Positions 3,294-18,576 of a stretch of 18,576 nucleotides of DNA are shown here, one piece after another. Each line of letters begins with the position of its first letter. Position 1 is the stretch's first letter. The DNA is from Propionibacteriaceae bacterium. GTDB lineage: Bacteria > Actinomycetota > Actinomycetes > Propionibacteriales > Propionibacteriaceae. The stretch lies in assembly GCA_031256725.1 (NCBI GenBank), contig JAIRQE010000001.1, positions 1 through 18,576 of the forward strand, given 5' to 3'. The notes below the pieces were generated by a model. The model was not told where the DNA came from. It saw only the letters and a list, made by a program, of their open reading frames with translations, and made no database searches. Made by a program: the position numbers and the translations under genes.

Positions 3294-3888
3294 GGTATCT
3301 CTCCTCACGATGGGACCAGCCCAAGGAGGCTCGCAAAAAAGCCACTCAAGGGTCGGTTAAATTAGGTAGGGGGCACGTGAGTACATAGGTACTACACAAT
3401 GCAGAAAAGATGCACGGAAACCAGATCACTTCCCCATGACCATAAAACAGGGCCTAAGCCCACCACCCACATGCGTAAACGCATGCTCGAAATGTCATAC
3501 TCCCCCATATGGAGTTGAGACATACAGATTCACAAAACCCCCATGTTTTGGAAACCTCTAGACCCCAAGGCGAACTACCCCAGTTCACCTGATGCAAAGC
3601 ATGTTACCCATAAACAATGGCTTAGTCAAAAAGTTGACGATACTCAAATAATGTGCCCGTGAAGTGGGTGCCCGTACTGATCAACCCGGTATATTGTTAT
3701 ATGTTGTCTCACCGTCGCGGGTCAAGGGTTCCCCCAGATGGGGTTGTCTTCTATAGTTGTCACTGTGAGTTCGGATTGGCATCGACGCCACCAACGGGGT
3801 GCCAACAGACTCCAGACCCATTGTGGGAACTGCGCTAAGGTCATCGTCGCCAGCGTCCCACCCCCTGGAACCCCGATAAGGAGCCCAA

Positions 3889-5622
3889 ATGAAAAAGGTA
3901 CTGATCGCAAACCGCGGTGAGATCGCAGTCCGTGTCATCCGCGCCTGCGCATCCTATGGCCTCAAGTCCGTTGCAGTGTACTCAGACACCGACGCCAATG
4001 CCATGCACGTACATCTGGCGGATGAAGCGTACGGCTTGGATGGCCGTTCCGCTCTAGAAACCTACCTGGACGCAGACAAGATCCTCGCCGCCGCAAAAAA
4101 GTCTGGCGCGGATGCTATCCATCCCGGTTACGGCTTCCTCTCCGAGAGAGCCGACTTCGCCCAAGCCGTCGAAGATGCCGGCCTGATCTGGATTGGCCCA
4201 ACCCCTGAGAACATCGCCCTGTTGGGCGACAAGGTGGCCGCCCGTACCATCGCTGAAAAGGTGGGAGCCCCCCTGGTTCCCGGTACGCCAGGCCCAGTTG
4301 ACTCTGTTGACGAGGTACGCGCCTTCGCCGATGCCCACGGATACCCGATCGCCATCAAGGCAGCCTTCGGTGGCGGTGGACGCGGCCTCAAGGTTGTACG
4401 TTCCCCCAAGGAACTCGAACTACGCTACGACTCCGCAGTCTCCGAAGCAGTGTCCGCCTTCGGTCGCGGCGAATGCTATGTGGAGCGCTTCGTGGACCGC
4501 CCCCGTCACGTCGAAACCCAGATCCTGGGCGACGGCAAGGGCCGCATCGTTGTTGTGGGTACCCGTGACTGCTCCGCACAGCGTCGCCACCAGAAAGTCA
4601 TCGAAGAAGCACCCGCACCCTTCATCACCGACCTGCAGATGGAGAAGCTCATCGAAGCATCCGTCGCAATCGGCTCCGAAGTGAAGTACCGCGGCGTAGG
4701 AACCATGGAGTTCATGCTCGGTTCCGATGGCCTACTCTCCTTCCTCGAAGTGAATACCCGTCTCCAGGTGGAGCACCCCGTCACAGAGCGTGTCACCGGT
4801 GTTGACCTGGTTATCTGGCAGTTCAAGATCGCTGAAGGCCACGACATGGATGAACTCCCTGACGTCGTACCCCAGATCGGTCACTGCTTCGAATTCCGTA
4901 TCAACGCTGAAGACCCCGGCCGTGGATTCCTGCCCCAGGCTGGCGAATTCACACGCTTCGACGTCCCAGGTGGACCCTTCCTGCGTGTCGATTCAGGTGT
5001 AGGTTCTGCAGGTACGATCTCCGCCGAGTTCGACTCCATGATCGCCAAGATCATCGTATGGGGCAACAACCGCGAAGAGGCCGTCGCCCGAAGCCGCCAG
5101 GCCATGAAAGAGTGCAATATCGAAGGCATTCCCACCCTGGTACCCTTCCACCGCAGGATGCTTGAAGAACCCCAGTTTGCTGCCACCAAGGCCAAGGATT
5201 TCCTGGTACACACCAACTGGATCGAAAACGAATGCACATGGCTCGGCGAACTCACCCAGCCACTACCTGCAGGCGTACACCGTGAAGAAGTCATCCGTGA
5301 ATGGTTCGAGGTTGACGGCAAGTGGATTCGTCTAGGATTCCCGGCATCCCTAGTTGGTACAGGTGGTTCCGGTGTACACGCACCTGCCAAGGCTGCACCC
5401 TCTGCTACAACCGCTGGCGCGGTCAAGTCTGCTATGAACGGCTTGGTCTCCAAGTGGCTCAAGGCAACAGGTGACGCTGTCGCCGAGGGAGAATCCGTGG
5501 GTGTTCTTGAAGCCATGAAGATGGAAATGCCCATCGTGGCTGAAGAGTCTGGTACCTTCACACAAATGGTTGAGGAAGGTACAACCGTCAAGGAGGGACA
5601 GGTCATCGCGACCATCCTTTAG
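3889..5622 (+). CDS. accA: Acetyl/propionyl-CoA carboxylase alpha subunit (biotin carboxylase fused to a C-terminal biotin carboxyl carrier domain; AccA/AccBC/BccA type)
   Basis: The N-terminus MKKVLIANRGEIAVRVIRA is the canonical biotin carboxylase start. It has the ATP-grasp glycine loop AAFGGGGRGLKVV and the EVNTRLQVEHPVTE motif. The C-terminal lipoyl/biotinyl domain carries EAMKMEMPI (biotinyl-Lys in AMKM). AAGGAG lies upstream of the ATG. Confidence 0.95.
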   Translation: MKKVLIANRGEIAVRVIRACASYGLKSVAVYSDTDANAMHVHLADEAYGLDGRSALETYLDADKILAAAKKSGADAIHPGYGFLSERADFAQAVEDAGLIWIGPTPENIALLGDKVAARTIAEKVGAPLVPGTPGPVDSVDEVRAFADAHGYPIAIKAAFGGGGRGLKVVRSPKELELRYDSAVSEAVSAFGRGECYVERFVDRPRHVETQILGDGKGRIVVVGTRDCSAQRRHQKVIEEAPAPFITDLQMEKLIEASVAIGSEVKYRGVGTMEFMLGSDGLLSFLEVNTRLQVEHPVTERVTGVDLVIWQFKIAEGHDMDELPDVVPQIGHCFEFRINAEDPGRGFLPQAGEFTRFDVPGGPFLRVDSGVGSAGTISAEFDSMIAKIIVWGNNREEAVARSRQAMKECNIEGIPTLVPFHRRMLEEPQFAATKAKDFLVHTNWIENECTWLGELTQPLPAGVHREEVIREWFEVDGKWIRLGFPASLVGTGGSGVHAPAKAAPSATTAGAVKSAMNGLVSKWLKATGDAVAEGESVGVLEAMKMEMPIVAEESGTFTQMVEEGTTVKEGQVIATIL

Positions 5623-5640
5623 TCCATGAGATGATCATGA

Positions 5641-5676
5641 CCGGCCATGGAGGTTACCCCTCTGTGGCCGGTTTTT
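5641..5676 (+). terminator. Rho-independent terminator after accA
   Basis: CCGGCCA (5641-5647) pairs with TGGCCGG (5665-5671), with additional inner GGAGG/CCTC pairing. It is followed directly by TTTTT (5672-5676), 19 nt after the accA stop. Confidence 0.6.
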
Positions 5677-5999
5677 GTACAGCGTGTAACAGTATGGCGA
5701 CTAATGACCCATCCATAGCTTCCGCGATTTTCTGCAGTATCCCCTCTTGTGAGATCTGCTTATTTCTGAAGTTTTCTTGGGTACTCATGATGACAATGGC
5801 ACGCCTGGGAACATACCTCCACACTCTTGATGATTACCCAGTTGATACCCCGGAAACCCCAAAGTCCCCCAGAGGAACCTGAGACAGACTCAAGGGGGTC
5901 GGTTCCTGTGGGGGACTTGTACTCTTGACTGCGCGTGAGCCCGGAAAGCATTGCGCACCTGTTATGTCAGAGTGGGGATGAGGGAAGGGTCATTACCTC

Positions 6000-6665
6000 C
6001 TAGAGTTCTGATAGTTGGCCATGTTGAATTGAGTAGATCTTGTCTGCGATTGAGGTCACCTTCCGAGAATGGGTGACGAGGATGACACACCGATTCTCTT
6101 CATGGGCGAGCCTCGTGAAGATGTCCAGGATCTCAGCTTCGGTCTCACGGTCGAGGTTACCGGTCGGTTCGTCAGCGATGAGGATCGCGGGATCATGAGC
6201 TAGAGCCCTCGCGATTCCCACGCGTTGCTGTTCCCCACCCGAAAGCTTCAGTACCTTGCGATCAGCGGTCTCCCGATCGATACCCATGCGCTCCAAGAGT
6301 TCATAGGTGTGAGTTTTCTTGTCCTTGACCTTCGACTTACTAATATTCATCGAAAGGACAATGTTTTGTACAGCAGTGGCATTGGTAATCAGGTTAAAGC
6401 TTTGAAAGATCACCCCGACCTTCCAGGAGCGGTACCAATCGCGATCCATCTCTTTCAGACTCATACCGCCGCACAGGACCTCACCCTTTGTGGGCAGATC
6501 CAGGCCCGAGATGAGCGAAAGAAGGGTCGACTTTCCAGCACCCGATTTTCCAACAATGGTGTACACCGACCCACGTTCGAAGGTCGCCGAGATATCTTTG
6601 AGTACAGGCTTGGTTGATCCCTCGTAGCGATAGCTCACATGGTCTAGTGCTAATGCGCTCGTCAT
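6000..6665 (-). CDS. ABC transporter ATP-binding protein (MacB/LolD/FtsE-like, 221 aa)
   Basis: Walker A GKSGAGKST, signature LSGGEQQRVGIARAL, Walker B ILIADEPTGNLD, H-loop VTHS. I chose the start at ATG 6665-6663 (MTSALALDHVSYRY): AAGGAA lies upstream, and it is 1 nt after the permease TGA (6669-6667), which suggests translational coupling. The track's 6737 start adds an unlikely 24 aa overlap. Confidence 0.93.
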   Translation of the reverse strand: MTSALALDHVSYRYEGSTKPVLKDISATFERGSVYTIVGKSGAGKSTLLSLISGLDLPTKGEVLCGGMSLKEMDRDWYRSWKVGVIFQSFNLITNATAVQNIVLSMNISKSKVKDKKTHTYELLERMGIDRETADRKVLKLSGGEQQRVGIARALAHDPAILIADEPTGNLDRETEAEILDIFTRLAHEENRCVILVTHSRKVTSIADKIYSIQHGQLSEL

Positions 6666-6666
6666 G

Positions 6667-8247
6667 TCAGTTCCTTTCCGAAAGAATCTTGATAGGTTCG
6701 TATTTGGTGATCTGAGTTGTTGCGATGACACCTGCAACCGAGGAGAGCGCTAGGGCTATACCGATGAGTTGGAGGATGGTACGCCAATCCAGTGAGATAT
6801 TGAGGTTTTCGAGGGGTTGGGCTGTTGTCCCTTGTCCGGGTAGGGTCATCCCCATTCCGGCAGGTCCACCTTGGATACGTCCACCCATCCCTTCAGGACG
6901 ACCGCCCTGCATGGGGTCACTCGTTTCGTTCTGGGTTTCAATGGCCGCGAGTTGCTGTTCGTACAAGACATTGGTGACAGGTTGGGCCACTGCCATACCA
7001 ATACCCAAACCCAAGATCAGGCAAACCCCAGTGATGATAAGGGTCTCGGTCCACAGTCCAGCGACCACCTTCAGCCTCTTCATACCCATAGCCCGCAGTA
7101 CACCTATTTCGTACTTGCGTTCGCGGATCGCAATGGAGGATAGCAAAGCCAAGATGATGGCACCAAAGATTAGGACGACAAACACAAAGGTGGTTGAAAT
7201 CGATTTGAGAGCCTCCACCGGTCGTACCACCTGGTTATAACTTGTGGCATCTGTGGTGACAAGCCAGACATCGGGGAGACCCTTTGTACGCAATTCGGCG
7301 TCGAAGTCCGCCAAAAGCATTGGATCCTTCAAGAAGTAGGTTGCACTCACTTGGATACCCTGCTTGCCCTCCTGGAGGTTGGCAAGCAGAGTATCCAGGG
7401 AAACAAGAATCTCATTGCGCCTATCGGCCCAAGCCGAGCGCAACTGGTTCAGTTGCTCCTCGGTCTGCGTGAGATCCGTGTACACGCCAACAATTGTTAG
7501 ACTCCAGGAAATCTCGGTTGTTGCAAGATCCGAGAGAGACGACCCGAGGTCTGAGGGATCAGTCGACTCCACATCGAGGTTGGGAGGGGTTGTAAGTTCA
7601 CCTGTGGCAGTGATTTTATCCCCGAGATGGAGCCCACTGGCATCCATGACGTCAGCGCTAATCATGGCTTCATTGATGCTTTCTGGGTACCGCGAAGTGG
7701 CGGTTGTTGTGTCATAGTCCGTGGATAGTTCACGGGTACCATTCGTGAAATCTGCAAATTGGTTGATGAGACGGAAATAGAACTGGGTGGATTGTGATTC
7801 CTCAACTTGGCCACCTGGGCCGCCCCTAGCGAAGCCACGGGTGGCACCGCCCGGACCGAGATCCGCATTAGCTGCGGTCAGATCGGTCGAATTTGCGTTG
7901 GTACTTGTGGAAAACTCCGCTTTTTGAAGAAGATCGGAATCCCCAAACTTAACGAGGTCCTGAGCGGAAATCTGAGGCATAACCATTCTGATCATCCCGC
8001 TGGAAGAGTTTTGTTGTGCTTCCTCGCGAATCTTCTCCTGATTAGGGGAAAGGACGACTTCGGAGCCGAATCGGGTTCTGTAATCGTCGATAATCCCGGA
8101 GGAGGTGTTGTTGATCATGAGGGCTGTCACAACGCAGATGATCATGACGAGGATGATTCCTCCGATCATGAAGTTACGTCCCCGATTACGTACCAGGTTT
8201 TGTATCGCATTGGTGATGATGTACACCTGCGGTCCTCTCTGCGCCAT
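6667..8247 (-). CDS. ABC transporter permease, FtsX/MacB-type (N-terminal TM, ~310 aa extracytoplasmic domain, C-terminal FtsX 3-TM module)
   Basis: N-terminus NAIQNLVRNRGRNFMIGGIILVMIICVV is the typical MacB TM1. The FtsX core is AIRERKYEIGVLRAMGMKRLKVVAGLWTETL. The C-terminus is ITKYEPIKILSE. It is in an operon with the ATPase. Confidence 0.9.
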   Translation of the reverse strand: MAQRGPQVYIITNAIQNLVRNRGRNFMIGGIILVMIICVVTALMINNTSSGIIDDYRTRFGSEVVLSPNQEKIREEAQQNSSSGMIRMVMPQISAQDLVKFGDSDLLQKAEFSTSTNANSTDLTAANADLGPGGATRGFARGGPGGQVEESQSTQFYFRLINQFADFTNGTRELSTDYDTTTATSRYPESINEAMISADVMDASGLHLGDKITATGELTTPPNLDVESTDPSDLGSSLSDLATTEISWSLTIVGVYTDLTQTEEQLNQLRSAWADRRNEILVSLDTLLANLQEGKQGIQVSATYFLKDPMLLADFDAELRTKGLPDVWLVTTDATSYNQVVRPVEALKSISTTFVFVVLIFGAIILALLSSIAIRERKYEIGVLRAMGMKRLKVVAGLWTETLIITGVCLILGLGIGMAVAQPVTNVLYEQQLAAIETQNETSDPMQGGRPEGMGGRIQGGPAGMGMTLPGQGTTAQPLENLNISLDWRTILQLIGIALALSSVAGVIATTQITKYEPIKILSERN

Positions 8248-8472
8248 TGGGCTATGCCCTTGTGGACGTACGAGCCAGGCCCTTGAACCATCGGTCCGGG
8301 GTGATCCGAGGGTCCGGCTGGTACGTAGTACTAGTCTGTTGGGTCCGCTATGAGATTGTTCTAAGAAACTTTGAGAAGTACTTGAAAAGGGTCGGATGCA
8401 TCACGTGAAACACCAGATTTCTCCGTGAAAATGCTTGTCAGAGGTGGGAATCCTTGAGTACTGGGTACTTGG

Positions 8473-8913
8473 TTAGATTTCTTTGACCATCTGGATGTAT
8501 GGCAGAACCTCGAAACCTAGGCGTTCATAGAGTTCCTGGGCCTTTGTGTTTGTGCCTGTGACTTCGAGTCGGAAGCGTTTGGCTTCAGGGTACTCTGCCC
8601 AGAGGTACTCGAAGAAGGCGCCACCTAGACCCTTGCCTCGGCATGTGTTGTCTATGTAGAGGTCTTCCACGAGTACGATTGGCCCGCCGATTTCGGTGGC
8701 GAAGCTGAAGGCGAGCAGGGCGAAACCGACAGGACGGCTCTCGTCTTCGATCATGAGGCCCCTTATGTAGGGCGACCCACTGGCCGCGGCATCGAAGGTG
8801 GATCCCAGAATCTTTGAATCAACTGGGTGGCTGACCGCATCCGAACTATAGAAGCGTACCGCCATCTCTAGAAAGGTTTCTTTGTCGTCAATAGTGAAGT
8901 CTCGTATCATCAT
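8473..8913 (-). CDS. GNAT family N-acetyltransferase
   Basis: 146 aa. Acetyl-CoA motif A is VEDLYIDNTCRGKGLGGAFFEYL, followed by LEVTGTNTKAQELYERLGF. AGGAGAG lies immediately upstream, so the second ATG at 8910 may be the real start. No adjacent antitoxin-sized ORF. Confidence 0.85.
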   Translation of the reverse strand: MMIRDFTIDDKETFLEMAVRFYSSDAVSHPVDSKILGSTFDAAASGSPYIRGLMIEDESRPVGFALLAFSFATEIGGPIVLVEDLYIDNTCRGKGLGGAFFEYLWAEYPEAKRFRLEVTGTNTKAQELYERLGFEVLPYIQMVKEI

Positions 8914-9080
8914 CTCTCCTAGTCAGGTACGTTCCAGCCTATCGAAGAAATGGGTCGCTGATAATAGTGAAACTTCCCCACAATGACCTAGATTCTACGA
9001 CCTGATAAGCCTCTTCGCGAAAGTAAACTTGCGAAGGATGGGAGCCCTGTGATCTGAAGGATTGGGAATTGCCCTGAGGG

Positions 9081-9119
9081 AGTAAACAACAAGGGCCCAG
9101 GTTATACCCCAGGCCCTTG
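9081..9119 (-). terminator. Probable terminator hairpin after ppdK
   Basis: CAAGGGCC (9090-9097) is the reverse complement of GGCCCTTG (9112-9119). On the minus strand the hairpin is followed by TTGTTTACT. It starts 17 nt after the ppdK stop. The loop is long (14 nt) and the T tract is weak. Confidence 0.45.
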
Positions 9120-9135
9120 CGTAGTGAAGAAATAA

Positions 9136-11763
9136 TTAGCGCAGTGCTGCTTGTGCTGCTGCCAGACGTGCGATCGGTACACGGAAAGGCGAGCAGGAGA
9201 CATACTGCAATCCAACTCGGTGACAGAACTCGACAGACGAAGGGTCGCCGCCGTGCTCACCACAGATACCGAGCTTGATGTCGGGGCGGGTCTTGCGACC
9301 CAATTCGACGGACATCTCAACGAGCTTGCCAACACCAGTCTGGTCGAGGCGCTCGAAAGGATCATTTTCGTAGATCTTCGTGTCGTAGTAGGCGTCAAGG
9401 AACTTCCCGGCGTCATCACGAGAGAACCCGAAGGTCATCTGAGTCAGGTCGTTGGTACCAAAGGAGAAGAACTCAGCCTCGGTGGCGATCTGGTCTGCGG
9501 TCAAAGCAGCGCGTGGGATCTCGATCATCGTACCCACCATGTACTTCAACTCAATGCCCGACTCGGCAATGATGCGGTCAGCGGTTTCGGTGATGATCGC
9601 CTTAACGAAGGCCAATTCCTTGACCTCACCAACGAGGGGAACCATGATCTCCGGGACGATTGTCCACTGCGGGTTGCGCTTTTGTACATTGATCGCAGCT
9701 TCGATGATGGCCCGTGTCTGCATGGCGCCAATCTCGGGATAGGTTACATCAAGGCGGCAGCCACGGTGACCCATCATCGGGTTGAACTCATGGAGGGAGG
9801 CGATCTTGGCGACGAGATCCTCGACACTGATCTTCATTTCGGCAGCGAGGGCCTTAATGTCAGCCTCATCAGTGGGGAGGAACTCATGCAGAGGCGGATC
9901 CAGGAGACGTACAGTCACAGGCTGGCCCTCCATGGCTTCGTAGATTCCCTCGAAGTCGCCACGCTGCATCGGCAGGAGCTTCGCCAATGCGGCTTCGCGC
10001 TGCTCAACAGTGTCAGCAACAATCATCTCGCGGATAGCGGCAATACGGTCAGCCTCGAAGAACATGTGCTCTGTACGGCATAGCCCGATACCTTCAGCAC
10101 CGAACTCCATGGCCTGACGTGCGTCAGCAGGGGTGTCGGCGTTCGTACGTACCTTCAAGGTACGGTACTGGTTGGCCCAGCCCATGATGCGTGCGAAGTC
10201 GCCACCGATCTCAGCGGGGACTGTCTTGATCTGCTCGCCGTAGACGTTTCCTGTGGAACCATCCAGGGAGATCCAGTCGCCCTCTTTGTACTCCTTGCCA
10301 CCGAGGGTGAAGGACTGCTCATCGGCGCCGAAGCGGATTTCGCCGAGGCCGGCAACGCAACATGTACCCATGCCACGAGCAACAACGGCTGCGTGGGAGG
10401 TCATACCACCGCGAGCGGTGAGGATGCCCTTGGCGTGGTGCATACCTTCGATGTCCTCAGGGGAGGTTTCGAGGCGAACCAGGATGACATCCTTGCCGGC
10501 CTTGACTGTCCACTCCGTAGCTGTTTCAGCAGTGAAGACGACCTGACCGGTCGCAGCACCAGGGGAGGCGGGAAGACCCTTGCCAATCGGGGAGGCAGCC
10601 TTGAGCTCCTTAACGTCGAACTGTGGGTGAAGGAGAGCGTCGAGCTGCTTGGGATCAATCATGGTGACGGCCTTCTTCTCGTCGATCATTCCCTCGTCAA
10701 CAAGGTCTGATGCGATACGGAAGGCAGCCGCCGCTGTACGCTTCCCGTTTCGGGTCTGCAGCATGTAGAGGGTTCCATCTTCGATGGTGAACTCCATATC
10801 CTGCATGTCACGATAGTGGGCTTCAAGCTTGCCGACAATGGCGAGGAACTGGTTGTAGACCTCGGCGTTGACATCCTTGAGCTTGTCAATGTTTTCTGGG
10901 GTACGAATACCCGCGACAACATCCTCGCCCTGAGCGTTCATAAGGAACTCACCGAAGAGACCCTTCTCGCCTGTTGAAGGGTTGCGTGAGAATGCTACGC
11001 CCGTACCAGAGGTGTCACCGAGGTTGCCGAAGACCATGGATTGCACGTTGACAGCCGTACCCCAGTCGGAGGGGATGTCGTTCATGCGGCGGTAGTACAC
11101 GGCGCGCGGGTTGTTCCAGGAACGGAAGACGGCCCTGATTGCGCCAAACATCTGCTCAATCGGATCGGAGGGGAAGTCAGCGCCGATCTTGGACTTGTAT
11201 TCAGCCATGAACTGGTAGGTGAGTTCCTTGAGGTCCTCAGCAGTCAGATCCACATCAAGGGAGACTCCACGGGCTTCCTTCATCTCGTCAATGAGGCGCT
11301 CGAAGTAGGCCTTACCGACCTCCATGACGACATCGGAGTACATCTGAATGAAGCGGCGGTAGGAATCCCAAGCCCAACGCGGGTTGCCCGACTTGGCGAT
11401 GAGTGTTTCGACGACTGTTTCGTTCATACCGAGGTTGAGGATGGTGTCCATCATGCCCGGCATGGATGCACGTGAGCCGGAGCGTACCGAAACCAACAGC
11501 GGGTTATCCGCATCACCGAACTTCTTGCCCTGCTCGGCTTCAAGAATTGCGACATGTTTCAAGATCTCGGCACGGATGGCCTCAGAAATTGTCTCCCCAT
11601 CGTTGTAATACTGGGTGCATGCTTCGGTCGTAATCGTGAACCCTTGGGGGACCGGCATCCCCAGTTTGGTCATCTCGGCGACGTTTGCACCCTTGCCACC
11701 CAGTAGGTTCCGCATAGAGGCGTCGCCCTCTTTGAAATCATAGACAAATTTCTTCTCAGCCAT
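9136..11763 (-). CDS. ppdK: Pyruvate, phosphate dikinase
   Basis: 875 aa from ATG 11763-11761 (MAEKKFVYDFKEGDASMRNLLGGKGANVAEMTKLGMPVPQGFTITTEAC). The phospho-histidine loop is GGMTSHAAVVARGMG. The PEP-utilising C-terminal signature is GICGEHGGDPSS. The 53 Arg-rich codons upstream in the track ORF (to 11922) look like a spurious extension. Confidence 0.95.
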   Translation of the reverse strand: MAEKKFVYDFKEGDASMRNLLGGKGANVAEMTKLGMPVPQGFTITTEACTQYYNDGETISEAIRAEILKHVAILEAEQGKKFGDADNPLLVSVRSGSRASMPGMMDTILNLGMNETVVETLIAKSGNPRWAWDSYRRFIQMYSDVVMEVGKAYFERLIDEMKEARGVSLDVDLTAEDLKELTYQFMAEYKSKIGADFPSDPIEQMFGAIRAVFRSWNNPRAVYYRRMNDIPSDWGTAVNVQSMVFGNLGDTSGTGVAFSRNPSTGEKGLFGEFLMNAQGEDVVAGIRTPENIDKLKDVNAEVYNQFLAIVGKLEAHYRDMQDMEFTIEDGTLYMLQTRNGKRTAAAAFRIASDLVDEGMIDEKKAVTMIDPKQLDALLHPQFDVKELKAASPIGKGLPASPGAATGQVVFTAETATEWTVKAGKDVILVRLETSPEDIEGMHHAKGILTARGGMTSHAAVVARGMGTCCVAGLGEIRFGADEQSFTLGGKEYKEGDWISLDGSTGNVYGEQIKTVPAEIGGDFARIMGWANQYRTLKVRTNADTPADARQAMEFGAEGIGLCRTEHMFFEADRIAAIREMIVADTVEQREAALAKLLPMQRGDFEGIYEAMEGQPVTVRLLDPPLHEFLPTDEADIKALAAEMKISVEDLVAKIASLHEFNPMMGHRGCRLDVTYPEIGAMQTRAIIEAAINVQKRNPQWTIVPEIMVPLVGEVKELAFVKAIITETADRIIAESGIELKYMVGTMIEIPRAALTADQIATEAEFFSFGTNDLTQMTFGFSRDDAGKFLDAYYDTKIYENDPFERLDQTGVGKLVEMSVELGRKTRPDIKLGICGEHGGDPSSVEFCHRVGLQYVSCSPFRVPIARLAAAQAALR

Positions 11764-12040
11764 CGTGACTCTGAATCTCCTTGAATCTGTGCTCCCATGT
11801 GCTCGTGAGGCCACCGCAAGCGCGAGGCGTGGGCGGGACCGTCGGTGTCGGTGGAGCATGATCCGACATCGAATATGCGCTCCCCTAACTCTACCCTCTT
11901 TGAGGGAGTACTGTCGCCTCAAACAGGGTCAGTGTCCGTGGTTGCACATATGCTCTCGTGAAAAGCAAATCTCTGGTCACCTTAAAAGATATCTCTATGG
12001 TTAATCATAAACCGCTCGTGGAGGGGAGTAGCCTTGGGGT

Positions 12041-14947
12041 ATGAGTACCTCACGGTTGCTTGGCTTGGATCCCGAGCAGGTTTTGACTGCCCCCATTGAT
12101 CTGCATGCACGCGCCCACGATGCTTCCCATTTCCTGCTCTACCCTCAGGTAATTGCGGTACCGCGCAATGCCGATGATGTTGCTCGCCTCCTGCGTTCCT
12201 GCGCAGCCTCGGGGACCTGCGTCACCTTTCGTTCCGGCGGTACCTCCCTGTCTGGCCAGGCGTCAACAGATGCTGTGTTAGCCGATGTCCGCCACCATTT
12301 CGATGGGATCGAGATTCTCGACAATGGTTTACGGGTACGAGTGGAGCCCGGGGTTACCGTGAATCGCGTCAACGCACATCTGGCTCCATATGGTCGCCAG
12401 ATCGGGCCCGATCCTGCAAGTTCAGCTGCGTGTACGATCGGTGGAGTTGTGGCCAATAACTCTTCGGGGATGGCCTGTGGTACCACGGAGAACTCCTATC
12501 GGACTCTGGAATCTATGGTTGTGGTCTTGGCTTCGGGTACGGTCATTGACACGGGTGCTTCTGATGCGGATGAGAAGTTACGCATGATGGAGCCCGCTTT
12601 GTACCGCGGGTTGGTTGAGTTGAGGGAGAGGATTCTGTCCAATTCGACGTCGGTTGCTGTGATCACCCAACAGTTCTCTATGAAAAACACAATGGGGTAC
12701 GGGTTGAATTCCTTCCTTGACTATTCGACGCCTGCTCAGATTCTGGCCCATCTGATGGTGGGAAGTGAGGGGACCTTAGGGTTTATCGCTTCGGCCATTC
12801 TCCGTACAATATCCGTACGTCCTTACGTAGAGACCGGGCTGCTGGTTTTCCGGGATCTTCATGCAGCGAATCAAGCGTTACCGGATCTGGTGGCAACTGG
12901 TGCTGCGACCCTGGAGTTGATGGATGCAACCTCAATCGCAGTGGGTCAAGGATTGGCTGGCTGTCCTGATCAGATTCGCGGTATTCAACCCATATCGCAG
13001 GCAGCCCTGCTGGTGGAGTATCAGGCTGAGACTCCTGAAGAACTTGATGGATTGGTTAAAGGCGCTCGTGAAGTCCTGAGTGGATTGGATCTAGAGCAAC
13101 CTGGTGAACTGAGTCGTGACCCTAAGACCCGCAGTCAGTTATGGGTTTTACGGAAGGGATTGTACACCGCTGTCGCCTCAGCTCGACGAGTGGGTACCAC
13201 CGCCCTCCTTGAAGATGTGGTCGTACCAGTGGAGGCATTAGCTGACACATGTACCGAGTTGGGTGAGCTATTTGAGGAGTACTCCTATCCAGATTCGGTG
13301 ATTTTCGGACATGCCAAAGACGGAAACATCCACTTCATGATTACCGATGAGTTTGATAAGCAACTGGAACGGTACGAACGGTTTACCCAAGCTATGGTTG
13401 ATGTGGTCCTCAGCCATCAAGGGTCACTGAAAGCTGAGCATGGTACCGGTCGAGTCATGGCCCCCTTTGTACGGCAACAGTACGGCGATGAGCTCTTTGA
13501 TGTGATGTGTAAGGTGAAGCAACTCTTTGACCCGTGGGATGTTTTGAATGATGGGTCGGTGATTACCCATGATCCTCGCGCCCATGTGCGTCACATTAAG
13601 ACCGCTGTACCCGTGGATCCCTATGTGGATGCCTGTGTTGAATGTGGGTACTGTGAACCCATTTGTCCGGCTCATCATCTGACCTTGACTCCTCGGCAAC
13701 GCATCGCAGTACAACGGGAGATTGCTGGGGCCCGGCAACGAGGGGAAAACCACCTAGCCTCCTGTTTGGAGAGCGACTACCAGTACGCCGGTCTCCAGAC
13801 TTGTGCGGTTGATGGGATGTGTGGAACAGCCTGTCCGGTCGGGATCAATACCGGGTTCTTCGTCAAGAAAGCCCGGGCTAAGGTTGCTCCACGTCTCGCA
13901 CAAGGAGTGTGGGGATTAGCCGCACAACGATGGGCTGGTACCACTCATATTGCAAGTTTTGCCTTGTCAGCCGCCGATGATCTTGGATTCGCTGCCCCGG
14001 TGATAACGAAACTCAACCAACTTGGCAGAGCCGTACTTGGCAAGGATCAACTCCCCCTATGGTCACCCGACCTCCCCCAAGGAGGCCGATCCAGACAACG
14101 TCCTGAGCCAACTCGTGAACCCGCAGCCATCTATATCCCCGCCTGCGTAAACTCCATGTTCGGCCCTTCCTCAACATTGTGTACACAGGACTCTCAGTCA
14201 TCCTGCGCGCACCATAGTGAAGTCGCAGGATCCAGACATACGATGAGTTGTACATCTGCGATGAAATGTACTCCTATCAACCCCCAAGGAGTTCAAGCTG
14301 CTTTCGAGTCCCTGTGTGCCTGTGCTGGAATCACCCTTCTTGTACCAAGAAACATTGATGCTTTGTGCTGTGGCACCCCCTGGAGTTCCAAAGGTATGAC
14401 CCAGGGCTACGAGACTATGGCAGCCCGAGTCATCCCAACCCTCAAAACTGCCACCGACAACGGACGAATCCCTATCGTCTGTGATGCTTCCAGTTGTACC
14501 GAGGGACTCATGAGAATGCTCGCTGAAGAACCCGCCCTTCAAGTCATCGACTGTGTGGAGTTCGTTGCTGAGCGCATCCTGCCCCTACTCCCGCCAGCCC
14601 AGAAGGTGGACTCGATCACCCTTCACCCGACCTGCTCCTCGACCCAACTGGGACTCAACCCCCACATGGTCACCCTTGCAGAAGCCGCCGCTACCACGGT
14701 CAATCTTCCTGTTGATGCTGGATGTTGTGCCTTCGCCGGTGACCGAGGAATGCTTCATCCCGAACTCACCTATGCAGCCACAAGACCTGAAGCTTACGAG
14801 GTAGCTGCCCTCAACGCTGAGGTACACGCCTCCTGCAACCGTACCTGTGAGATCGGAATGACCCGAGCAACCGGTGAACCCTACCACCACATCCTCGAAA
14901 TACTGGCTTCAGTGATGAAAACGCTCTCCCCGACTCAAGGCCAATGA
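12041..14947 (+). CDS. FAD-binding oxidase fused to 4Fe-4S and cysteine-rich (CCG) domains; D-lactate/glycolate dehydrogenase-like (YdiJ / GlcD-GlcF fusion type)
   Basis: FAD_binding_4 region VTFRSGGTSLSGQ. FAD-oxidase C region KAEHGTGRVMAPF. Two ferredoxin clusters, CVECGYCEPICP and CAVDGMCGTACPVG. The C-terminal half has CCG-type motifs (ALCCGTPW, HPTCS, AGCCAFAGDRG). Confidence 0.9.
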   Translation: MSTSRLLGLDPEQVLTAPIDLHARAHDASHFLLYPQVIAVPRNADDVARLLRSCAASGTCVTFRSGGTSLSGQASTDAVLADVRHHFDGIEILDNGLRVRVEPGVTVNRVNAHLAPYGRQIGPDPASSAACTIGGVVANNSSGMACGTTENSYRTLESMVVVLASGTVIDTGASDADEKLRMMEPALYRGLVELRERILSNSTSVAVITQQFSMKNTMGYGLNSFLDYSTPAQILAHLMVGSEGTLGFIASAILRTISVRPYVETGLLVFRDLHAANQALPDLVATGAATLELMDATSIAVGQGLAGCPDQIRGIQPISQAALLVEYQAETPEELDGLVKGAREVLSGLDLEQPGELSRDPKTRSQLWVLRKGLYTAVASARRVGTTALLEDVVVPVEALADTCTELGELFEEYSYPDSVIFGHAKDGNIHFMITDEFDKQLERYERFTQAMVDVVLSHQGSLKAEHGTGRVMAPFVRQQYGDELFDVMCKVKQLFDPWDVLNDGSVITHDPRAHVRHIKTAVPVDPYVDACVECGYCEPICPAHHLTLTPRQRIAVQREIAGARQRGENHLASCLESDYQYAGLQTCAVDGMCGTACPVGINTGFFVKKARAKVAPRLAQGVWGLAAQRWAGTTHIASFALSAADDLGFAAPVITKLNQLGRAVLGKDQLPLWSPDLPQGGRSRQRPEPTREPAAIYIPACVNSMFGPSSTLCTQDSQSSCAHHSEVAGSRHTMSCTSAMKCTPINPQGVQAAFESLCACAGITLLVPRNIDALCCGTPWSSKGMTQGYETMAARVIPTLKTATDNGRIPIVCDASSCTEGLMRMLAEEPALQVIDCVEFVAERILPLLPPAQKVDSITLHPTCSSTQLGLNPHMVTLAEAAATTVNLPVDAGCCAFAGDRGMLHPELTYAATRPEAYEVAALNAEVHASCNRTCEIGMTRATGEPYHHILEILASVMKTLSPTQGQ

Positions 14948-15057
14948 GAAAAACACGCGAAGGAAAGTGAGAATGTCAGGAGATACGTTCCCTGACCCAC
15001 ATGGACCTTCATATCCAGGAATATAGAGTCGTCCTCTCGCACCAAGGACGAAGGACT

Positions 15058-16320
15058 ATGATCGACTGCGTAAGTACCTCAGAAACATCCATGGAACCGA
15101 CACCCGCTGCCTCGCTGTGGCGCGGGCGGTTAGCCCTACTCGCAGGGATCATCCTGATCGGGCTCAATGCGCGGATCATGGTGGCTGTGGTCTCGCCCAT
15201 CATCTCGATCATCATCGAGGAACTCCCGCTCACCCATGGCCACCAGGAACTCATCGGCTGGGCAGCCCCCGCAGTATTCGCGATCATGGGGATCCTCGCG
15301 CCACCCCTAGGACGACGGTACGGACTCGAAGCAATGATGGTTGTCTGTCTGGGGATCTCGGCCCTTGGAGAGATCGCACGCGCACTCGCGACAACACCAA
15401 ACCAATTCATCTGGTGGACGATCCCAGCCCTTGCTGGCGCAGGAATCGGCAACGTTTTGGTGCCCCCACTCATTCGTAAGTACTTCCCTGATCAGGTACC
15501 CGTCGTCACATCAATCTACACCCTCTTTGCAATGATCTCAGCCGCACTGCCGCCGCTCTTCATCCTCAACATCGCCCAGGCAACCGGATGGCGATTCTCG
15601 GTCGGAGTCTGGGGTGCGGCAGGACTCCTCGGCTTCCTGCCCTGGATGGTGATAATCTTCTCCTCAAGTCGCTCAGGTCATCGCATATCAGCAATCAAGC
15701 GCAGACTTGACCCTCGTACCGTAGTTGAAAGACCCCCACGCTTGGGTGTACCCATATGGAAAACCAAGGTCGCATGGGCGATGACAACGGTATTCGTCGT
15801 GAACTCACTGATCGCCTACACCATGTTCGCGTGGCTGCCACATGTACTGACCGAGGCCGGGATCTCACAGACCTCAGCTGCAATGTACCTCGCAATCTTC
15901 GCGATCGCACCCCTGCCAGGCGCCTTCATCACACCGATCCTCGCCGCGCGACTGAAACACGGCTGGATTCTGCCGGTTGTCTTCTCGGTTGCCTACGCGA
16001 TCTCTATGACATTCCTGGCATTTTGGCCCGCATTCCTCACACTGGCGTGGATCCTGCTCTCCCGCATCGGGGACTCCTTCTTCCCGTACATCATGACGAT
16101 GATCAACCTGCGTACGCGTACCACCCACGGTTCGATGGCCATGAGCGGATTCGTCCAATTCTTCGGGTACAGCCTCGCCTCCATCGGACCCATCGGCTTT
16201 GGGATCCTCTACACCGCCACTGGTACATGGCAGGTACCCATGACTGCGATTTTGGTACTACTGCCCATACAGTTTGTGGCTGGGATGATCGTTGCCCGGG
16301 CAGTACCCGTGGATGTGTGA
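15058..16320 (+). CDS. MFS transporter, CynX/YeaN-like (cyanate-permease family architecture)
   Basis: About 12 hydrophobic segments. The N-terminal region LLAGIILIGLNARIMVAVVSPIISIIIEELPLTHGHQELIGWAAPAVFAIMGILAPPLGRRYG resembles the CynX family. I prefer the start at ATG 15058 (AAGGACGAAGGAC upstream) over the track's 15001 (no SD). 15091 is also possible. Confidence 0.8.
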   Translation: MIDCVSTSETSMEPTPAASLWRGRLALLAGIILIGLNARIMVAVVSPIISIIIEELPLTHGHQELIGWAAPAVFAIMGILAPPLGRRYGLEAMMVVCLGISALGEIARALATTPNQFIWWTIPALAGAGIGNVLVPPLIRKYFPDQVPVVTSIYTLFAMISAALPPLFILNIAQATGWRFSVGVWGAAGLLGFLPWMVIIFSSSRSGHRISAIKRRLDPRTVVERPPRLGVPIWKTKVAWAMTTVFVVNSLIAYTMFAWLPHVLTEAGISQTSAAMYLAIFAIAPLPGAFITPILAARLKHGWILPVVFSVAYAISMTFLAFWPAFLTLAWILLSRIGDSFFPYIMTMINLRTRTTHGSMAMSGFVQFFGYSLASIGPIGFGILYTATGTWQVPMTAILVLLPIQFVAGMIVARAVPVDV

Positions 16321-16599
16321 TGGTCGAATTTGTGTTCGTGACTACCTAGAGTCCGTTGCGGCAACCGGTGATCCGACATCACGGGGTAAAGGACTGGCTC
16401 TTCCTCGAGAAGGGGCGAACCACTCTCTATAGCCTCAATGATGATGTGATAGTACCGGTATCACGTACAGTCATTCCGTGCGTTGACAGGTGTTCGGCCA
16501 CTTCTCTGGAACTCTGAACGCTGGCAGTTTCCAGCTTCTTGAGTTCTTGTCGTTGTGATCGCGCCTTCTGAACAAGTGGCATCGTCAGGTGAGAGTTCT

Positions 16600-16761
16600 A
16601 TGGCCACCACCTGGATATGGTGTCTGAGTAGGATGTCCCGAACTGAACTGGGTGACATTCTTGGAATTGGTTCAAGCACTACGAGCCAGAAGCTAAACGG
16701 CAAGGTCTCTTGGTCTTTCAAAGATATCTACCATGTCGCCCGTATTTCTCAATTCCTGTAA
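16600..16761 (+). CDS. Small XRE/Cro-like helix-turn-helix protein (53 aa), possibly a relic
   Basis: RMSRTELGDILGIGSSTTSQKLNGKVSWSFKDIYHVARI fits the HTH_XRE pattern (helix, G-turn, recognition helix, xxGK). ATG 16600 is preferred over the track's GTG 16555. It is short for the family and has no partner gene. Confidence 0.45.
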   Translation: MATTWIWCLSRMSRTELGDILGIGSSTTSQKLNGKVSWSFKDIYHVARISQFL

Positions 16762-16841
16762 ATTTCCTTATGCCCGAAATGGATGATATGAGACGATTCA
16801 TCCCTGCCACACTGCCGATTGAAGTGGGCCGTCATAATCTG

Positions 16842-16878
16842 CGCGCCTGGAGGGAGTCGAACCCCCAACCTTCTGAAC
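16842..16878 (-). tRNA. 3'-terminal tRNA gene fragment (variable region, T-arm, acceptor 3' strand, discriminator G) with no 5' half; probable att repeat of an integrative element
   Basis: The minus strand reads CAGAAGGTT-GGGGG-TTCGACT-CCCTC-CAGGCGC-G. That is a T-stem, a canonical TTCGAnT T-loop, the T-stem return, a 7-nt acceptor strand and a discriminator. Sequence 5' of it (16879 upward) is AT-rich and cannot form an anticodon stem, D-arm or matching GCGCCTG acceptor strand. The isotype cannot be assigned. Confidence 0.7.
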
Positions 16879-17034
16879 TATGGCTAACATCTTATAATAT
16901 TCGGAGGTTTTTATTCCGCGTAAGTCTTCTTTATTCCCCAGGGTTTCGACAACATTTCATACATAAATCCCACAATAATCATCAAATACCGCATATTTTG
17001 TATCCCATAATTCTTCGATACTTTGGAGGTACAA

Positions 17035-17895
17035 ATGCACGGACCCATGCCTCAACCGAGTTGGAGTCCCAAGTGGACTGCCATTCTTCAACTTTGGTCT
17101 GAGCACATGAAATGTCAAGGCCTCGCGGCAGAAACAGTCAAGTCTCGCATCGATACCATGAAACATGTTTCACGGATGCTTAAAACTGAGATTGAAAACG
17201 TTTCAACAGACCAACTCACTAAATGGGTGGCGCTACAGCAATGGGCGCCTGAAACTAGACGCCGCTACTATACAACGTTGAAACTGTTTTTCAGTTTCAG
17301 TGTTACCACACGAGCTGCACTGATCAACCCAGCTATAGACCTTCCTACTGTACGAATACCAAAACCGTACCCCCGCGCCATCCCAGATCCCATTCTTATC
17401 GCAGCCATTAATGAATGCGGAGACCGGCTCACACGACTTGTGCTTCTCATCGCCGCCGAAACCGGAGCGAGGCGAAGTGAAATCGCTCAAATTCAACCCA
17501 ACAGAGATTTGCTATATACGCATAATGGGTGGTCGTTGTATCTTCATGGGAAAGGGAATAAAAAACGCCTCGTGCCCATCACAAATCGCCTTGCTTCGGA
17601 GATCCGCAAGTGGTCTGGACAAGCCTCTAGATGGCTCTTTCCGTCAACTCAATCTACAACTGGACACCTCAGCCCATCACACATAGGAAAGCTTGCCTCA
17701 CGTAATCTCCCCGCAGGATGGACCCTTCATACCCTCCGGCATCGGTTTGCAACAATAGCGAATGAGCAAACAGGCGACCTAGCTGCATTACAGCAACTCC
17801 TGGGGCACGAATCCCTTGCAACCACCCAACGCTATGTCAATCCCAGCGACGCACGAATGCGGCGACTGGTCGATGCTGTCGCACTCGAAAGATAA
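17035..17895 (+). CDS. Tyrosine recombinase / phage-type integrase (XerC/D-like, 286 aa)
   Basis: Catalytic set: ETGARRSE (Arg I), HGKGNKKR (Lys), HTLRHRFAT (His-x-x-Arg), LLGHESLATTQRYV (His/Trp position and Tyr nucleophile). N-terminal SAM-like core-binding region. ATG 17035 sits 5 nt after GGAGG (17025-17029); the track start at 17023 is a TTG. Confidence 0.93.
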   Translation: MHGPMPQPSWSPKWTAILQLWSEHMKCQGLAAETVKSRIDTMKHVSRMLKTEIENVSTDQLTKWVALQQWAPETRRRYYTTLKLFFSFSVTTRAALINPAIDLPTVRIPKPYPRAIPDPILIAAINECGDRLTRLVLLIAAETGARRSEIAQIQPNRDLLYTHNGWSLYLHGKGNKKRLVPITNRLASEIRKWSGQASRWLFPSTQSTTGHLSPSHIGKLASRNLPAGWTLHTLRHRFATIANEQTGDLAALQQLLGHESLATTQRYVNPSDARMRRLVDAVALER

Positions 17896-17901
17896 CCCAT
17901 T

Positions 17902-18576
17902 ATGGCCAAAGAACTCGACATCCCCATAACCATCATTACATGTAATGCAATGATAGCCCGTAAAGACATGTTCCCATGGTGTCCATGCGTTACCAATAAA
18001 CCATGCATAGCAACGACACCAACGAACGAATATAAGTCCATCATTCATGGCTATGCCACGATAGCAAACAACACCATGAATCCATACAACCCATCCATTA
18101 CCAGCAAGGGATTCTTTCCATCCAAGACCATGAACACTGGTGTTGCAAGCGTTACCAACATTCCAAGCAACCCAATCCTCACAAGGAATGCCCGCTCTAC
18201 ATGCACTACTGTGCATCCATGCATCACAATGATGCCCAGCAACCCATACAATCCCTGCATTCACATCTTCACAAGGAAAACACTCAACCCAAGCAAGACA
18301 TCTAAGCCAACGTTCACATGCAATACATTCTTAGCCCGCATGACAATGAAAACTGGCTTGACATGTCAAACAAGTCTTCCCACGGATACATGTGCTGGTA
18401 TTAGCAACCGTCGGCCCCTGCGGGGTTACAGAAAGCTTCTATTTCGGTTCTCCAGGGACTCCATTATCCCGCCCACTCCTTCCACGCAACCACACTACGT
18501 GTGGTCCTCTAGTGAAAAACTTTTCCACTCCACGGTCGATGCCGTGTCGCCGCAAGCGAAACTTTTTCACCAACGG
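17902..18576 (+). CDS. Hypothetical Thr/Asn/Pro/Cys/Ile-rich repeat protein, first 225 codons; open to the right window edge. Coding status uncertain.
   Basis: I checked ATG 17902 to 18576 codon by codon and found no stop, while both other + frames have stops. It is not in the track because it has no stop in the window. It contains in-frame degenerate 54-codon repeats (VTNxP, NPYNPxI). Third-position usage (C/A/T-ending, G-poor) resembles the adjacent integrase. Against: no SD, very unusual composition, and an exact antisense frame that is also nearly open. Confidence 0.35.
   Translation, partial: MAKELDIPITIITCNAMIARKDMFPWCPCVTNKPCIATTPTNEYKSIIHGYATIANNTMNPYNPSITSKGFFPSKTMNTGVASVTNIPSNPILTRNARSTCTTVHPCITMMPSNPYNPCIHIFTRKTLNPSKTSKPTFTCNTFLARMTMKTGLTCQTSLPTDTCAGISNRRPLRGYRKLLFRFSRDSIIPPTPSTQPHYVWSSSEKLFHSTVDAVSPQAKLFHQR
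17934..17947. repeat. Perfect 14-bp palindrome CATTACATGTAATG
   Basis: Read directly from the sequence; it is its own reverse complement. Core ACATGT. Confidence 0.9.
17959..18444 (+). repeat. Degenerate tandem repeat, period 162 nt (54 codons), about 3 units
   Basis: Exact 10-mer GCGTTACCAA at 17987-17996 and 18149-18158 (offset 162). CCATACAA at 18082-18089 and 18244-18251 (offset 162). AAGAC(C)ATG and TGGTGT also recur at about the same offset. TCACAAGGAA (18179-18188) matches TGACAATGAA (18341-18350) at 8/10 with offset 162. Separately, TCACAAGGAA recurs at 18269-18278 (offset 90). Confidence 0.55.
18358..18369. repeat. Perfect 12-bp palindrome TTGACATGTCAA
   Basis: Read directly from the sequence; it is its own reverse complement. 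It has the same ACATGT core as the 17934-17947 palindrome. Confidence 0.9.

Follow-up and report, generated by a model that had tools for sequence, protein, structure and literature searches.

A cryptic nine-nucleotide array lies downstream of the integrase gene

The window analysed here, 18,576 nucleotides (nt) long, is an entire contig (JAIRQE010000001.1) of a metagenome-assembled genome of a Propionibacteriaceae bacterium. Host housekeeping genes occupy positions 1–16320, after which the GC content drops from ~0.55–0.58 to 0.45–0.50. The low-GC part contains, in order, a helix-turn-helix (HTH) open reading frame (ORF), a tRNA/tmRNA-like 3' fragment, a tyrosine integrase gene (int) and a block of about 0.5 kb, followed by 180 nt to the contig end. 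An earlier reading of this DNA (the original prediction) had singled out the block for its composition, its density of CATG tetramers and its open frames on both strands, offering a repeat-protein cargo gene, a Rho-loading insulator or a binding array as explanations. We find that the block is a cryptic array of 52 nine-nt units. A repeat-coding origin is the best supported of these candidates, although the organising period of nine nt, or one tripeptide, had been missed.

The array spans 468 nt (17929–18396). Its boundaries are sharp when units are scored one by one with a position weight matrix (PWM), and the period is also seen in a table of 9-mers. Base autocorrelation peaks at all multiples of 9 up to at least 216 nt (0.37–0.48, against an all-lag mean of 0.27), with no peak at lags 3, 6 or 12. 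In the column-entropy periodogram, periods of 9, 18 and 27 reach z = 16.7, 16.5 and 14.1, while a period of 3 gives z = 2.2. The phase is identical in 47 of 47 held-out 54-nt windows, by a wide margin. A direct-repeat search returns weak repeats with spacings that are all multiples of 9; Tandem Repeats Finder (TRF) reports no repeat in the window at a score of 30 or more. The apparent higher-order repeat at a lag of 216 nt lies within the profile null described below.

On the + strand the unit follows the profile [A/C/G] C [A/C] [A/T] N [C/G/T, never A] A [A/T] N. When the sequence is written in rows of nine from 17902, position 2 is C in 48 of 58 rows and position 7 is A in 37 of 58. The information content of the columns is uneven, ranging from 1.1 bit at position 2 to 0.07 bit at position 9, which is free. 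Units are only ~40% identical to one another, yet there is not a single register-breaking indel in 468 nt. Because the column constraint is uneven, and because no indel has occurred despite near-saturating substitution, we argue that the unit pattern is maintained by selection and is not an old satellite in neutral decay.

A reading frame is the commonest cause of uneven column constraint without indels. We favour, with a probability of roughly 45%, the reading that the block codes, or coded until recently, for a tandem protein repeat with a period of three residues, making it an orphan repeat-protein cargo gene at the int-proximal end of a small actinobacterial prophage-like element. As an in-frame tandem-repeat cargo ORF, this is a kind of object already known and not a new category. 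The unit length is divisible by three and the register is kept, both here (period 9) and in a sister element, contig L002, whose unit is 18 nt. That both elements keep to a period of exactly three codons points to a structural repeat of three residues.

Such an array would grow by replication slippage or unequal exchange of 9- or 18-nt units, as the perfect 18-nt copies of L002 lead us to infer. In the window, the copies have diverged by point substitution with no length change that breaks the register, and position-specific constraint persists, strongly at position 2, with position 9 free. If the + strand is read, an ORF starting at ATG 17902 would be co-transcribed with int and would yield a Thr/Pro/Asn-rich protein, probably extended or disordered, whose length could vary in frame. 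From its position, the product would occupy a lysogenic-conversion or 'moron' slot.

The unit profile accounts for the open frames and most of the CATG excess

The base counts reported for 17901–18400 were borne out (A170 C150 G75 T105), as were the coordinates of all 14 CATG and all four ACATGT sites. The block has a GC content of ~0.48. Its dinucleotide signature (17920–18396) is unlike that of int and the host, with TG (2.13), CA (1.49) and AT (1.49) over-represented and CG (0.53) and CT (0.55) under-represented; the corresponding values for int are 0.98 for CG and 1.32 for TG. The 14 CATG sites compare with 1.7 expected under a mononucleotide null, and the excess persists after Markov-1 correction (7.2 expected, P = 0.011).

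We compared the block with a profile null, in which each of the nine columns is shuffled among units so that only the profile is kept. A tandem run of the consensus unit ACATGCAAT, of the form [NCN][WNS][AWN], is free of stop codons in all six frames. Depletion of stops in the +1 and −1 frames is significant under mononucleotide and Markov-1 nulls (P ≤ 0.003). Under the profile null, 2.3 stops are expected and none observed in the + frame (P = 0.07), 2.2 expected and one observed in the exact antisense (−1) frame (P = 0.30), and 5.2 expected and four observed in the −2 frame (P = 0.37). The profile alone predicts 6.0 CATG sites. When the coupling between positions 3 and 4 is added, 8.8 are expected against the 14 observed (P = 0.024). 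ACATGT is still in excess under this combined null (0.53 expected, four observed, P = 0.001).

The original prediction had considered that composition alone might explain the stop depletion and the CATG density. Simple composition does not, but the nine-nt profile accounts for the stop depletion and for most of the CATG sites. The open frames on both strands, the excess of C over G and most of the CATG density are thus by-products of the unit pattern. Since the profile null reproduces them, open frames and CATG density are mostly two faces of one hidden feature.

Column coupling and palindromes raise the possibility of a non-coding array

Two features are left over by the profile. The first is the coupling of position 3 with position 4 (0.58 bit, z = 10.7), the only strong one between columns, which straddles the codon border of the +1 and −1 frames and resembles a CA/CCA motif in two registers. 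The second is ACATGT. Its four sites (17938, 17966, 18361 and 18388) are found only at the array ends, within ~45 nt, leaving the central 390 nt without any; they are paired at a spacing of 28 nt on the left and 27 nt on the right. One copy of each pair is the centre of a perfect palindrome, of 14 bp on the left (CATTACATGTAATG, 17934–17947, read from the sequence) and of 12 bp near the right end (TTGACATGTCAA, 18356–18367, from an inverted-repeat search). The centres of the sites at 17938 and 18361 (17940|17941 and 18363|18364) fall on codon borders and lie 423 nt, or 141 codons, apart.

Both features are consistent with a non-coding phased array acting as DNA or RNA, in which 9- or 18-bp sites are bound by a protein that the element encodes (as in iterons, centromeres or the accessory array of a recombinase) or form a strand-specific RNA feature, and the 9-bp register itself is selected. 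We regard this as an unlikely alternative, though one to be taken seriously. The constraints hit all three codon positions in every frame, and the profile is partly dyad-symmetric, its reverse complement scoring 1.7 bit per unit. Dyad-symmetric sites would not be expected to show the strand asymmetry of the block (C 30%, G 15%), however, and the invisibility of the window array to TRF also counts against repeated binding sites. Known iteron and centromere arrays consist of few, well-conserved units, and we know of no bacterial DNA-binding system that uses 52 contiguous, ~40%-identical 9-bp units. The 225-codon + ORF with its ATG directly after int would, moreover, be a coincidence of about 0.07 × 0.08 × 0.25, the last two factors being estimates.

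A related proposal, which we consider improbable, is that the array is a device specific to this integrase lineage that works at the nucleic-acid level or on both strands, either as a phased protein-binding scaffold or as a cassette bounded by the ACATGT palindromes. In the cassette version, inversion between the palindromes would exchange the + frame for the equally stop-poor antisense frame with no frameshift. There is no sign of inversion between the palindromes, and a Logan contig of the same locus (L001, 1641 nt) is continuous through both. A diversity-generating retroelement template, a DnaA-box array, clt/TraB repeats and an MPME-like mini-element were also considered and set aside because they fit poorly.

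Reading frames and codon usage point in different directions

The + frame (17902–18576) starts at an ATG 6 nt after the int stop codon and in frame with int. As originally described, it is free of stops for 225 codons, ~69 of which lie outside the array, and it runs off the contig, so that its 3' end lies past the contig end. Its Shine-Dalgarno (SD) sequence is weak. The frame reads as a [T/P/A]-x-[N/K/I] repeat rich in Thr, Pro, Asn, Ile and Cys, and the reported amino-acid bias was reproduced (T29, P18, I16, N16 and C10, with D3 and E2, in 174 residues). Its conserved repeat column, every third residue, is T25/P19/A13 and is chemically coherent.

The exact antisense frame (17788–18438, − strand) reads as an x-x-[W/C/G] repeat. 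Its description also proved accurate: it is interrupted by a TAA inside the array (18331–18333) and bounded upstream by a TAG (18439–18441), its longest ORF (17788–18264, GTG start) overlaps int by 108 nt, and it has no ATG or SD-bearing start. The product contains G19, C18, W13, H10 and V15 in 174 residues, and its every-third-residue column consists of W/C (~33) and G19.

Within the coding hypothesis we lean towards the + strand on the grounds of ORF architecture, namely the ATG 6 nt after int, the 225 open codons, the lack of a terminator, the arrangement in L002 and the Thr/Pro/Ala column. No terminator was found between int and the block, where promoter and terminator scans remained at chance level. 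A smaller but substantial share of the coding hypothesis goes to the alternative that it was the exact antisense frame that imposed the constraints. That frame would be convergent with int, as late genes are in related phages, and would since have been broken by nonsense codons. This alternative is favoured by the codon statistics: synonymous usage in the antisense frame is nearly homogeneous among repeat positions (z = 2.0–2.3, the best fit of the frames, yet still p about 0.03), T-ending codons are preferred at all three positions (43%, 47% and 64%), and a simulation of antisense coding predicts a + frame heterogeneity of 6.9 ± 1.1, compared with 6.2 observed. Codon-usage likelihood relative to int or to host relative synonymous codon usage had no power in controls.

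Several observations weigh against the coding reading. Synonymous usage in the + frame differs among repeat positions (z = 5.3–6.2, where simulated + coding gives 0.1 ± 1.0); the Thr codon ACG, for example, is used in 0 of 25 cases at repeat position 1 and in 5 of 5 at position 2. A does not occur at wobble position 6, and G and T hardly ever occur at wobble position 3, which places these two positions among the most constrained columns. This contradicts the earlier argument that third-position usage favours the + strand. Neither the JGI nor the Logan gene caller called the + frame, and its product has no signal peptide and 6% Cys. On the antisense side, the frame carries the two nonsense codons and no start, overlaps int, and has Trp, Cys and Gly as its 'conserved' column. 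The coupling across the codon border and the ACATGT excess fit no frame.

The homology searches also fall on this side. For the + and antisense frames there was no relative in 5.8 billion clusters (word-indexed search) and, concatenated, none in 1.84 billion representatives (exhaustive phmmer). Neither these frames nor the two −2 ORFs matched Pfam or PHROG, and tblastn of the + frame against phage genomes was empty. The original prediction had recognised neither product as a known family, and these searches agree. At the nucleotide level, blastn against phages and plasmids was empty and Rfam gave no match for the block at gathering or E-value thresholds; the contig tail showed noise-level similarity to the int 3' end, the int N-terminal domain and syntenic lysis proteins. 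Single-sequence AlphaFold2 models of the + and antisense products had low and uninformative confidence (predicted local distance difference test scores of 27.6 and 35.7). The lack of a protein homologue in all frames, and the fact that three annotation pipelines produced no convincing gene, are what a non-coding array would lead one to expect.

A stricter version of the antisense alternative holds that the block is a relic: a minus-strand repeat gene whose x-x-[W/C/G] frame shaped the sequence and which has become a pseudogene as this end of the prophage decays, the + ORF being accidental. We think this doubtful. It draws on the codon statistics given above and turns the exclusions at positions 1, 3 and 6 into stop avoidance or first-base (amino-acid) constraints, and the genes adjoining int in related phages are indeed convergent and on the minus strand. 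It has to accommodate the TAA and TAG with no SD-bearing start, the overlap of 108 nt with int, and two nonsense codons accompanied by no frameshift over more than 600 nt. A product with 7.5% Trp and 10% Cys, and with Trp, Cys and Gly sharing one structural position, is chemically implausible. Relatives so rich in Trp and Cys should be easy for phmmer to find, and none was found; the homogeneity test itself still departs from expectation at the p value given above.

The only annotated genes in the block are two hydrophobic ORFs in the −2 frame. One encodes 69 amino acids (aa; 18051–18260, − strand) and is the sole gene annotated here by JGI (hypothetical protein), also present in the Logan calls; the other, of 70 aa (17832–18044, − strand), was called in the Logan contig only and has a tail antisense to the int 3' end. 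The original prediction had counted a single stop in this frame between 17832 and 18260. There are in fact two, at 18051–18053 and 18045–18047 (translation ...IVA*P*MMD...), and four across the whole block.

That these are real membrane or holin-like genes ending a lysis cassette seems very improbable. Two gene callers chose them, and related prophages carry small membrane proteins convergent with int beside holin and endolysin genes. The ORFs begin with ATG, in one case as a double start (MM), and the C-terminal tail of the 70-aa product is basic. The nine-nt pattern, however, crosses their starts and stops, and the four in-array stops are close to the number expected from the profile. Synonymous-codon homogeneity is violated most strongly in this frame (z = 7.8), whose every-third-residue column is V25/G19/A13. 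The likeness of the two N-termini lies within the profile null, and the abundance of ATG follows from the CATG excess. No holin, PHROG (E ≤ 0.1) or Pfam match was found, and tblastn of the relatives' syntenic proteins against 17800–18576 gave noise.

Taken together, no single reading frame explains all constraints. A specialist should find only one part of the analysis surprising, the disagreement of the codon statistics with the ORF architecture, and the verdict on it is limited by a truncated contig and by a lineage of which only two members are known, a further point against the coding reading.

Rho loading is a possible side effect at most

The + strand of the block is C-rich, G-poor and lies behind int without an intrinsic terminator, and the original prediction had proposed an untranslated tract acting as a Rho-loading insulator, similar to a Rho utilization (rut) site. 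The composition fits. A bubble of C ≥ G in a 78-nt window is continuous over 17548–18456, the mean C − G of the array is 17%, and the length of at least 78–80 nt is reached; in tests with E. coli, termination occurred on all templates whose bubble exceeded 78 bp (PMC6144790). The + RNA is also weakly structured (z = −1.85). By the criteria of that work, Rho should load on the + strand if it is not translated.

The period is harder to reconcile with Rho loading. Rho contacts YC dimers with (YC)N9-13 spacing, 11–15 nt apart (PMC6144790, Nadiras et al.), and the nine-nt phasing is shorter than this. The longest (YC)N9-13 chain in the array is 4, the minimum for known Rho terminators (≥4), whereas int and an equally long host segment each reach 8. 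The register-locked period, the absence of indels and the position-specific constraints are left unexplained. Moreover, int is already richer in C than in G, which makes a special tract unnecessary, the 470 nt are about six times the size of a rut site, and translation of the + ORF would mask the tract with ribosomes. We consider an insulator function highly unlikely. Any Rho sensitivity of the block is possibly a side effect and not its function.

A sister element carries a perfect repeat at the same place

We collected 224 relatives of the integrase. The only close one (P0002, 54% identity) is encoded on the 1193-nt JGI contig L002. Starting 45 nt after its int stop codon, L002 carries the perfect tandem repeat CCAACAACCCTGGGAACC, with 4.4 copies of an 18-nt unit that are 100% identical and run off the contig. 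On the integrase strand this repeat, with its unit of 2 × 9 nt, is rich in C and poor in G. Under the PWM of the window array, it scores positively in one + phase only (CCCAACAAC/CCTGGGAAC, 2.6 bit per unit) and negatively in the other eight.

An ATG lies 10 nt after the int stop of L002, with an SD-like AAGAGG, and opens a Thr/Pro-rich frame reading MRSTQQTSSKEL(PTTLGT)n. The + product of the window reads MAKELDIPITIITCN..., and a K-E-L...P.T start is common to both. In both elements the array phase with the best profile is in the reading frame of int, with one stop codon between (TAA in the window, 17893–17904; TAG in L002, 1068–1082); a shared phase of this kind has a chance of about 1 in 9. 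In L002 this profile-fitting, int-register frame has no start codon, and the ATG belongs to the next frame. Only one frame of the perfect unit reads GLLGFP.

Among more distant relatives, a comparable array 3' of int is absent. About 110 were inspected, comprising 80 loci from a metagenome scan, 12 contigs from an IMG/VR scan, further protein look-ups and the phages Barebow and Sneeze; the integrases of the scanned loci are 30–55% identical (tblastn best segment). The L002 unit had no exact match in IMG/VR, and scans of genome contigs for further family members returned nothing. In the distant relatives, int is followed either by convergent genes for small membrane proteins, a holin and an endolysin or by parA. 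As L002 alone among the relatives inspected has an array-like repeat after int, the array seems confined to a very small sub-lineage, young in L002, where the copies are perfect, and old in the window, where they have diverged.

These relatives also bear on the non-coding array. The perfect 18-bp direct repeats of L002 are of the kind seen in iterons, which speaks for binding sites. The integrase relatives with ParA do not have such an array, and neither a binding protein nor a conserved motif was identified.

The relatives L092, L004, L078, L085, L104 and L105 are actinobacterial phages or prophages with a conserved end. Related IMG/VR contigs are ~14–37 kb long (mostly 16–21 kb), and the genomes of Barebow and Sneeze measure 18 kb and 42 kb. 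In several of the relatives, int is convergent with genes for a 110–134-aa transmembrane (TM)/coiled-coil protein, a holin-like protein of ~80 aa with two TM segments and an amidase endolysin. In Barebow and Sneeze, this slot ahead of the endolysin or holin gene is filled by other hypothetical genes. Further relatives (L007, L012 and L086) carry ParA beside int and, in one case, a D12-class adenine methyltransferase.

Period-9 matches were encountered in L012 (2118–3950), L015, L032, L049, L083 and others. They were rejected, as they belong to an unrelated host membrane protein with QYGQAPQGQP (27-nt) repeats. The gene for this protein adjoins a tRNA and an int + ParA element in high-GC actinobacteria.

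The array is located at the end of a prophage-like segment

The host part of the window encodes biotin carboxylase, an ABC/FtsX pair, a GNAT protein, pyruvate phosphate dikinase, an FAD oxidase and an MFS transporter. The first feature of the low-GC part is the Cro/CI-type HTH ORF (16555–16761, + strand), which matches BetR in Pfam (E = 4.7e-5) and a repressor in PHROG. It is followed by the tRNA/tmRNA-like 3' fragment (16838–16880, − strand), in which a T-arm (GGGGGTTCGACTCCCTC) and an acceptor can be read from the sequence. An Rfam match to a tmRNA 3' end at 16850–16866 is below threshold (E = 0.06), and ARAGORN found no complete tRNA or tmRNA gene at 16838–16880. The fragment, placed between the HTH gene and int, is probably the core of an attachment (att) site. 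The integrase gene itself (17035–17895, + strand) has the SD GGAGG, starts at ATG 17035 and stops at TAA 17893–17895; the product matches PF00589 (E = 4.8e-24), a PHROG integrase and, at 100%, an entry annotated as site-specific integrase.

The Logan contig L001 is identical to 16847–18487, so that the junction between int and the block is not an assembly chimera, with the reservation that this contig and the source assembly were possibly built from common reads. An identical segment is present in Logan run SRR14710887. L001 starts at 16847, exactly inside the tRNA-like fragment, which is where a break would be expected if the att core is repeated. When int and the 69-aa ORF were looked up exactly to extend the contig beyond 18576, only this Logan contig was returned.

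The co-oriented order of repressor gene, tRNA-like att fragment and int (16555–17895) corresponds to the 'viral' rep-attP-int layout of cultured phages. The same rep-int order is found in two phages whose integrases are ~37–38% identical to that of the window: in Mycobacterium phage Sneeze (Gclasvirinae) the repressor gene gp33 precedes the int gene gp32, and in Curtobacterium phage Barebow gp19 precedes gp18. Integration-dependent immunity is a feature of cluster G phages. The 'viral' layout here directly adjoins host genes, which points either to integrations in series or in tandem that left a remnant or to an att site within the island.

At the very end of the contig lies a 12-nt inverted repeat (GTGAAAAACTTT ... 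AAACTTTTTCAC, 18512–18523 and 18559–18570, 35 nt apart), together with a direct copy (AAACTTTTCCAC). Both assemblies end near it, at 18487 and 18576. The repeat may be an operator-like site or a repeat edge.

Comparison with known systems

The block shows that a degenerate period-9 profile invisible to TRF is sufficient to create long ORFs on both strands, a marked excess of one palindromic tetramer and a misleading annotation of small ORFs. Since the profile alone produces such features, a test for hidden periodicity should precede claims of overlapping genes or special signals.

Among non-coding systems, rut sites resemble the block in that a + strand of little structure, rich in C and poor in G, follows a gene without an intrinsic terminator. 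They differ from the array in being ~80 nt long and without a fixed period, where the array keeps a nine-nt period over 468 nt. Iteron and centromere arrays, such as the lambda ori and parC/parS, resemble L002 in having ~18-bp direct repeats beside maintenance genes of mobile elements. Iterons can sit in coding sequence, those of the lambda ori lying inside gene O. The well-conserved 17–22-bp direct repeats of such arrays are found in L002 and not in the window array, which consists of 52 contiguous, ~40%-alike units, is invisible to TRF and strand-asymmetric, and has no identified initiator or ParB. The only genes of the element visible in the window are int and the one HTH ORF, as the contig ends 180 nt past the array.

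In the Mollicutes vpma/Xer1 and mba loci, in-frame tandem-repeat ORFs stand beside a small tyrosine recombinase gene and are subject to promoter or cassette inversion. The window likewise combines a tandem-repeat ORF with a tyrosine recombinase gene. Its int differs from the Xer-like recombinases of Mollicutes in lying beside a tRNA-like att fragment and in having prophage integrases as relatives, and there is no sign of inversion.

Two families of repeat proteins are closest in period. The PGRS unit of mycobacterial PE_PGRS genes is the 9-bp CGGCGGCAA (PMC3914561). The array resembles it in being actinobacterial, in its nine-nt (tripeptide) period and as a long, imperfect in-frame repeat, and differs in being A+C-rich and beside a phage integrase gene, with no Gly-rich frame, no PE domain and no sequence similarity. 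PGRS regions themselves are GC-rich, chromosomal, Gly-Gly-Ala/Asn-coding arrays that follow a PE domain and are long, imperfect and polymorphic in frame. Collagen-like Gly-X-Y proteins (Scl, BclA and regions of phage tail fibres and hyaluronidases) vary by in-frame slippage and are often encoded on prophages. They share with the array a strict three-residue period; a Gly at every third residue is lacking in all frames of the block (5 Gly in the 174 residues of the + product, at most 19 in the antisense product), and there is no Pfam collagen match.

If the block is a true gene, it would encode an orphan repeat protein that keeps the strict three-residue period of collagen-like and PGRS proteins without their Gly, carried in the lysogenic-conversion slot of poorly sampled small actinobacterial prophages. 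Such a product could be variable in length and act on the host surface or in phage exclusion.

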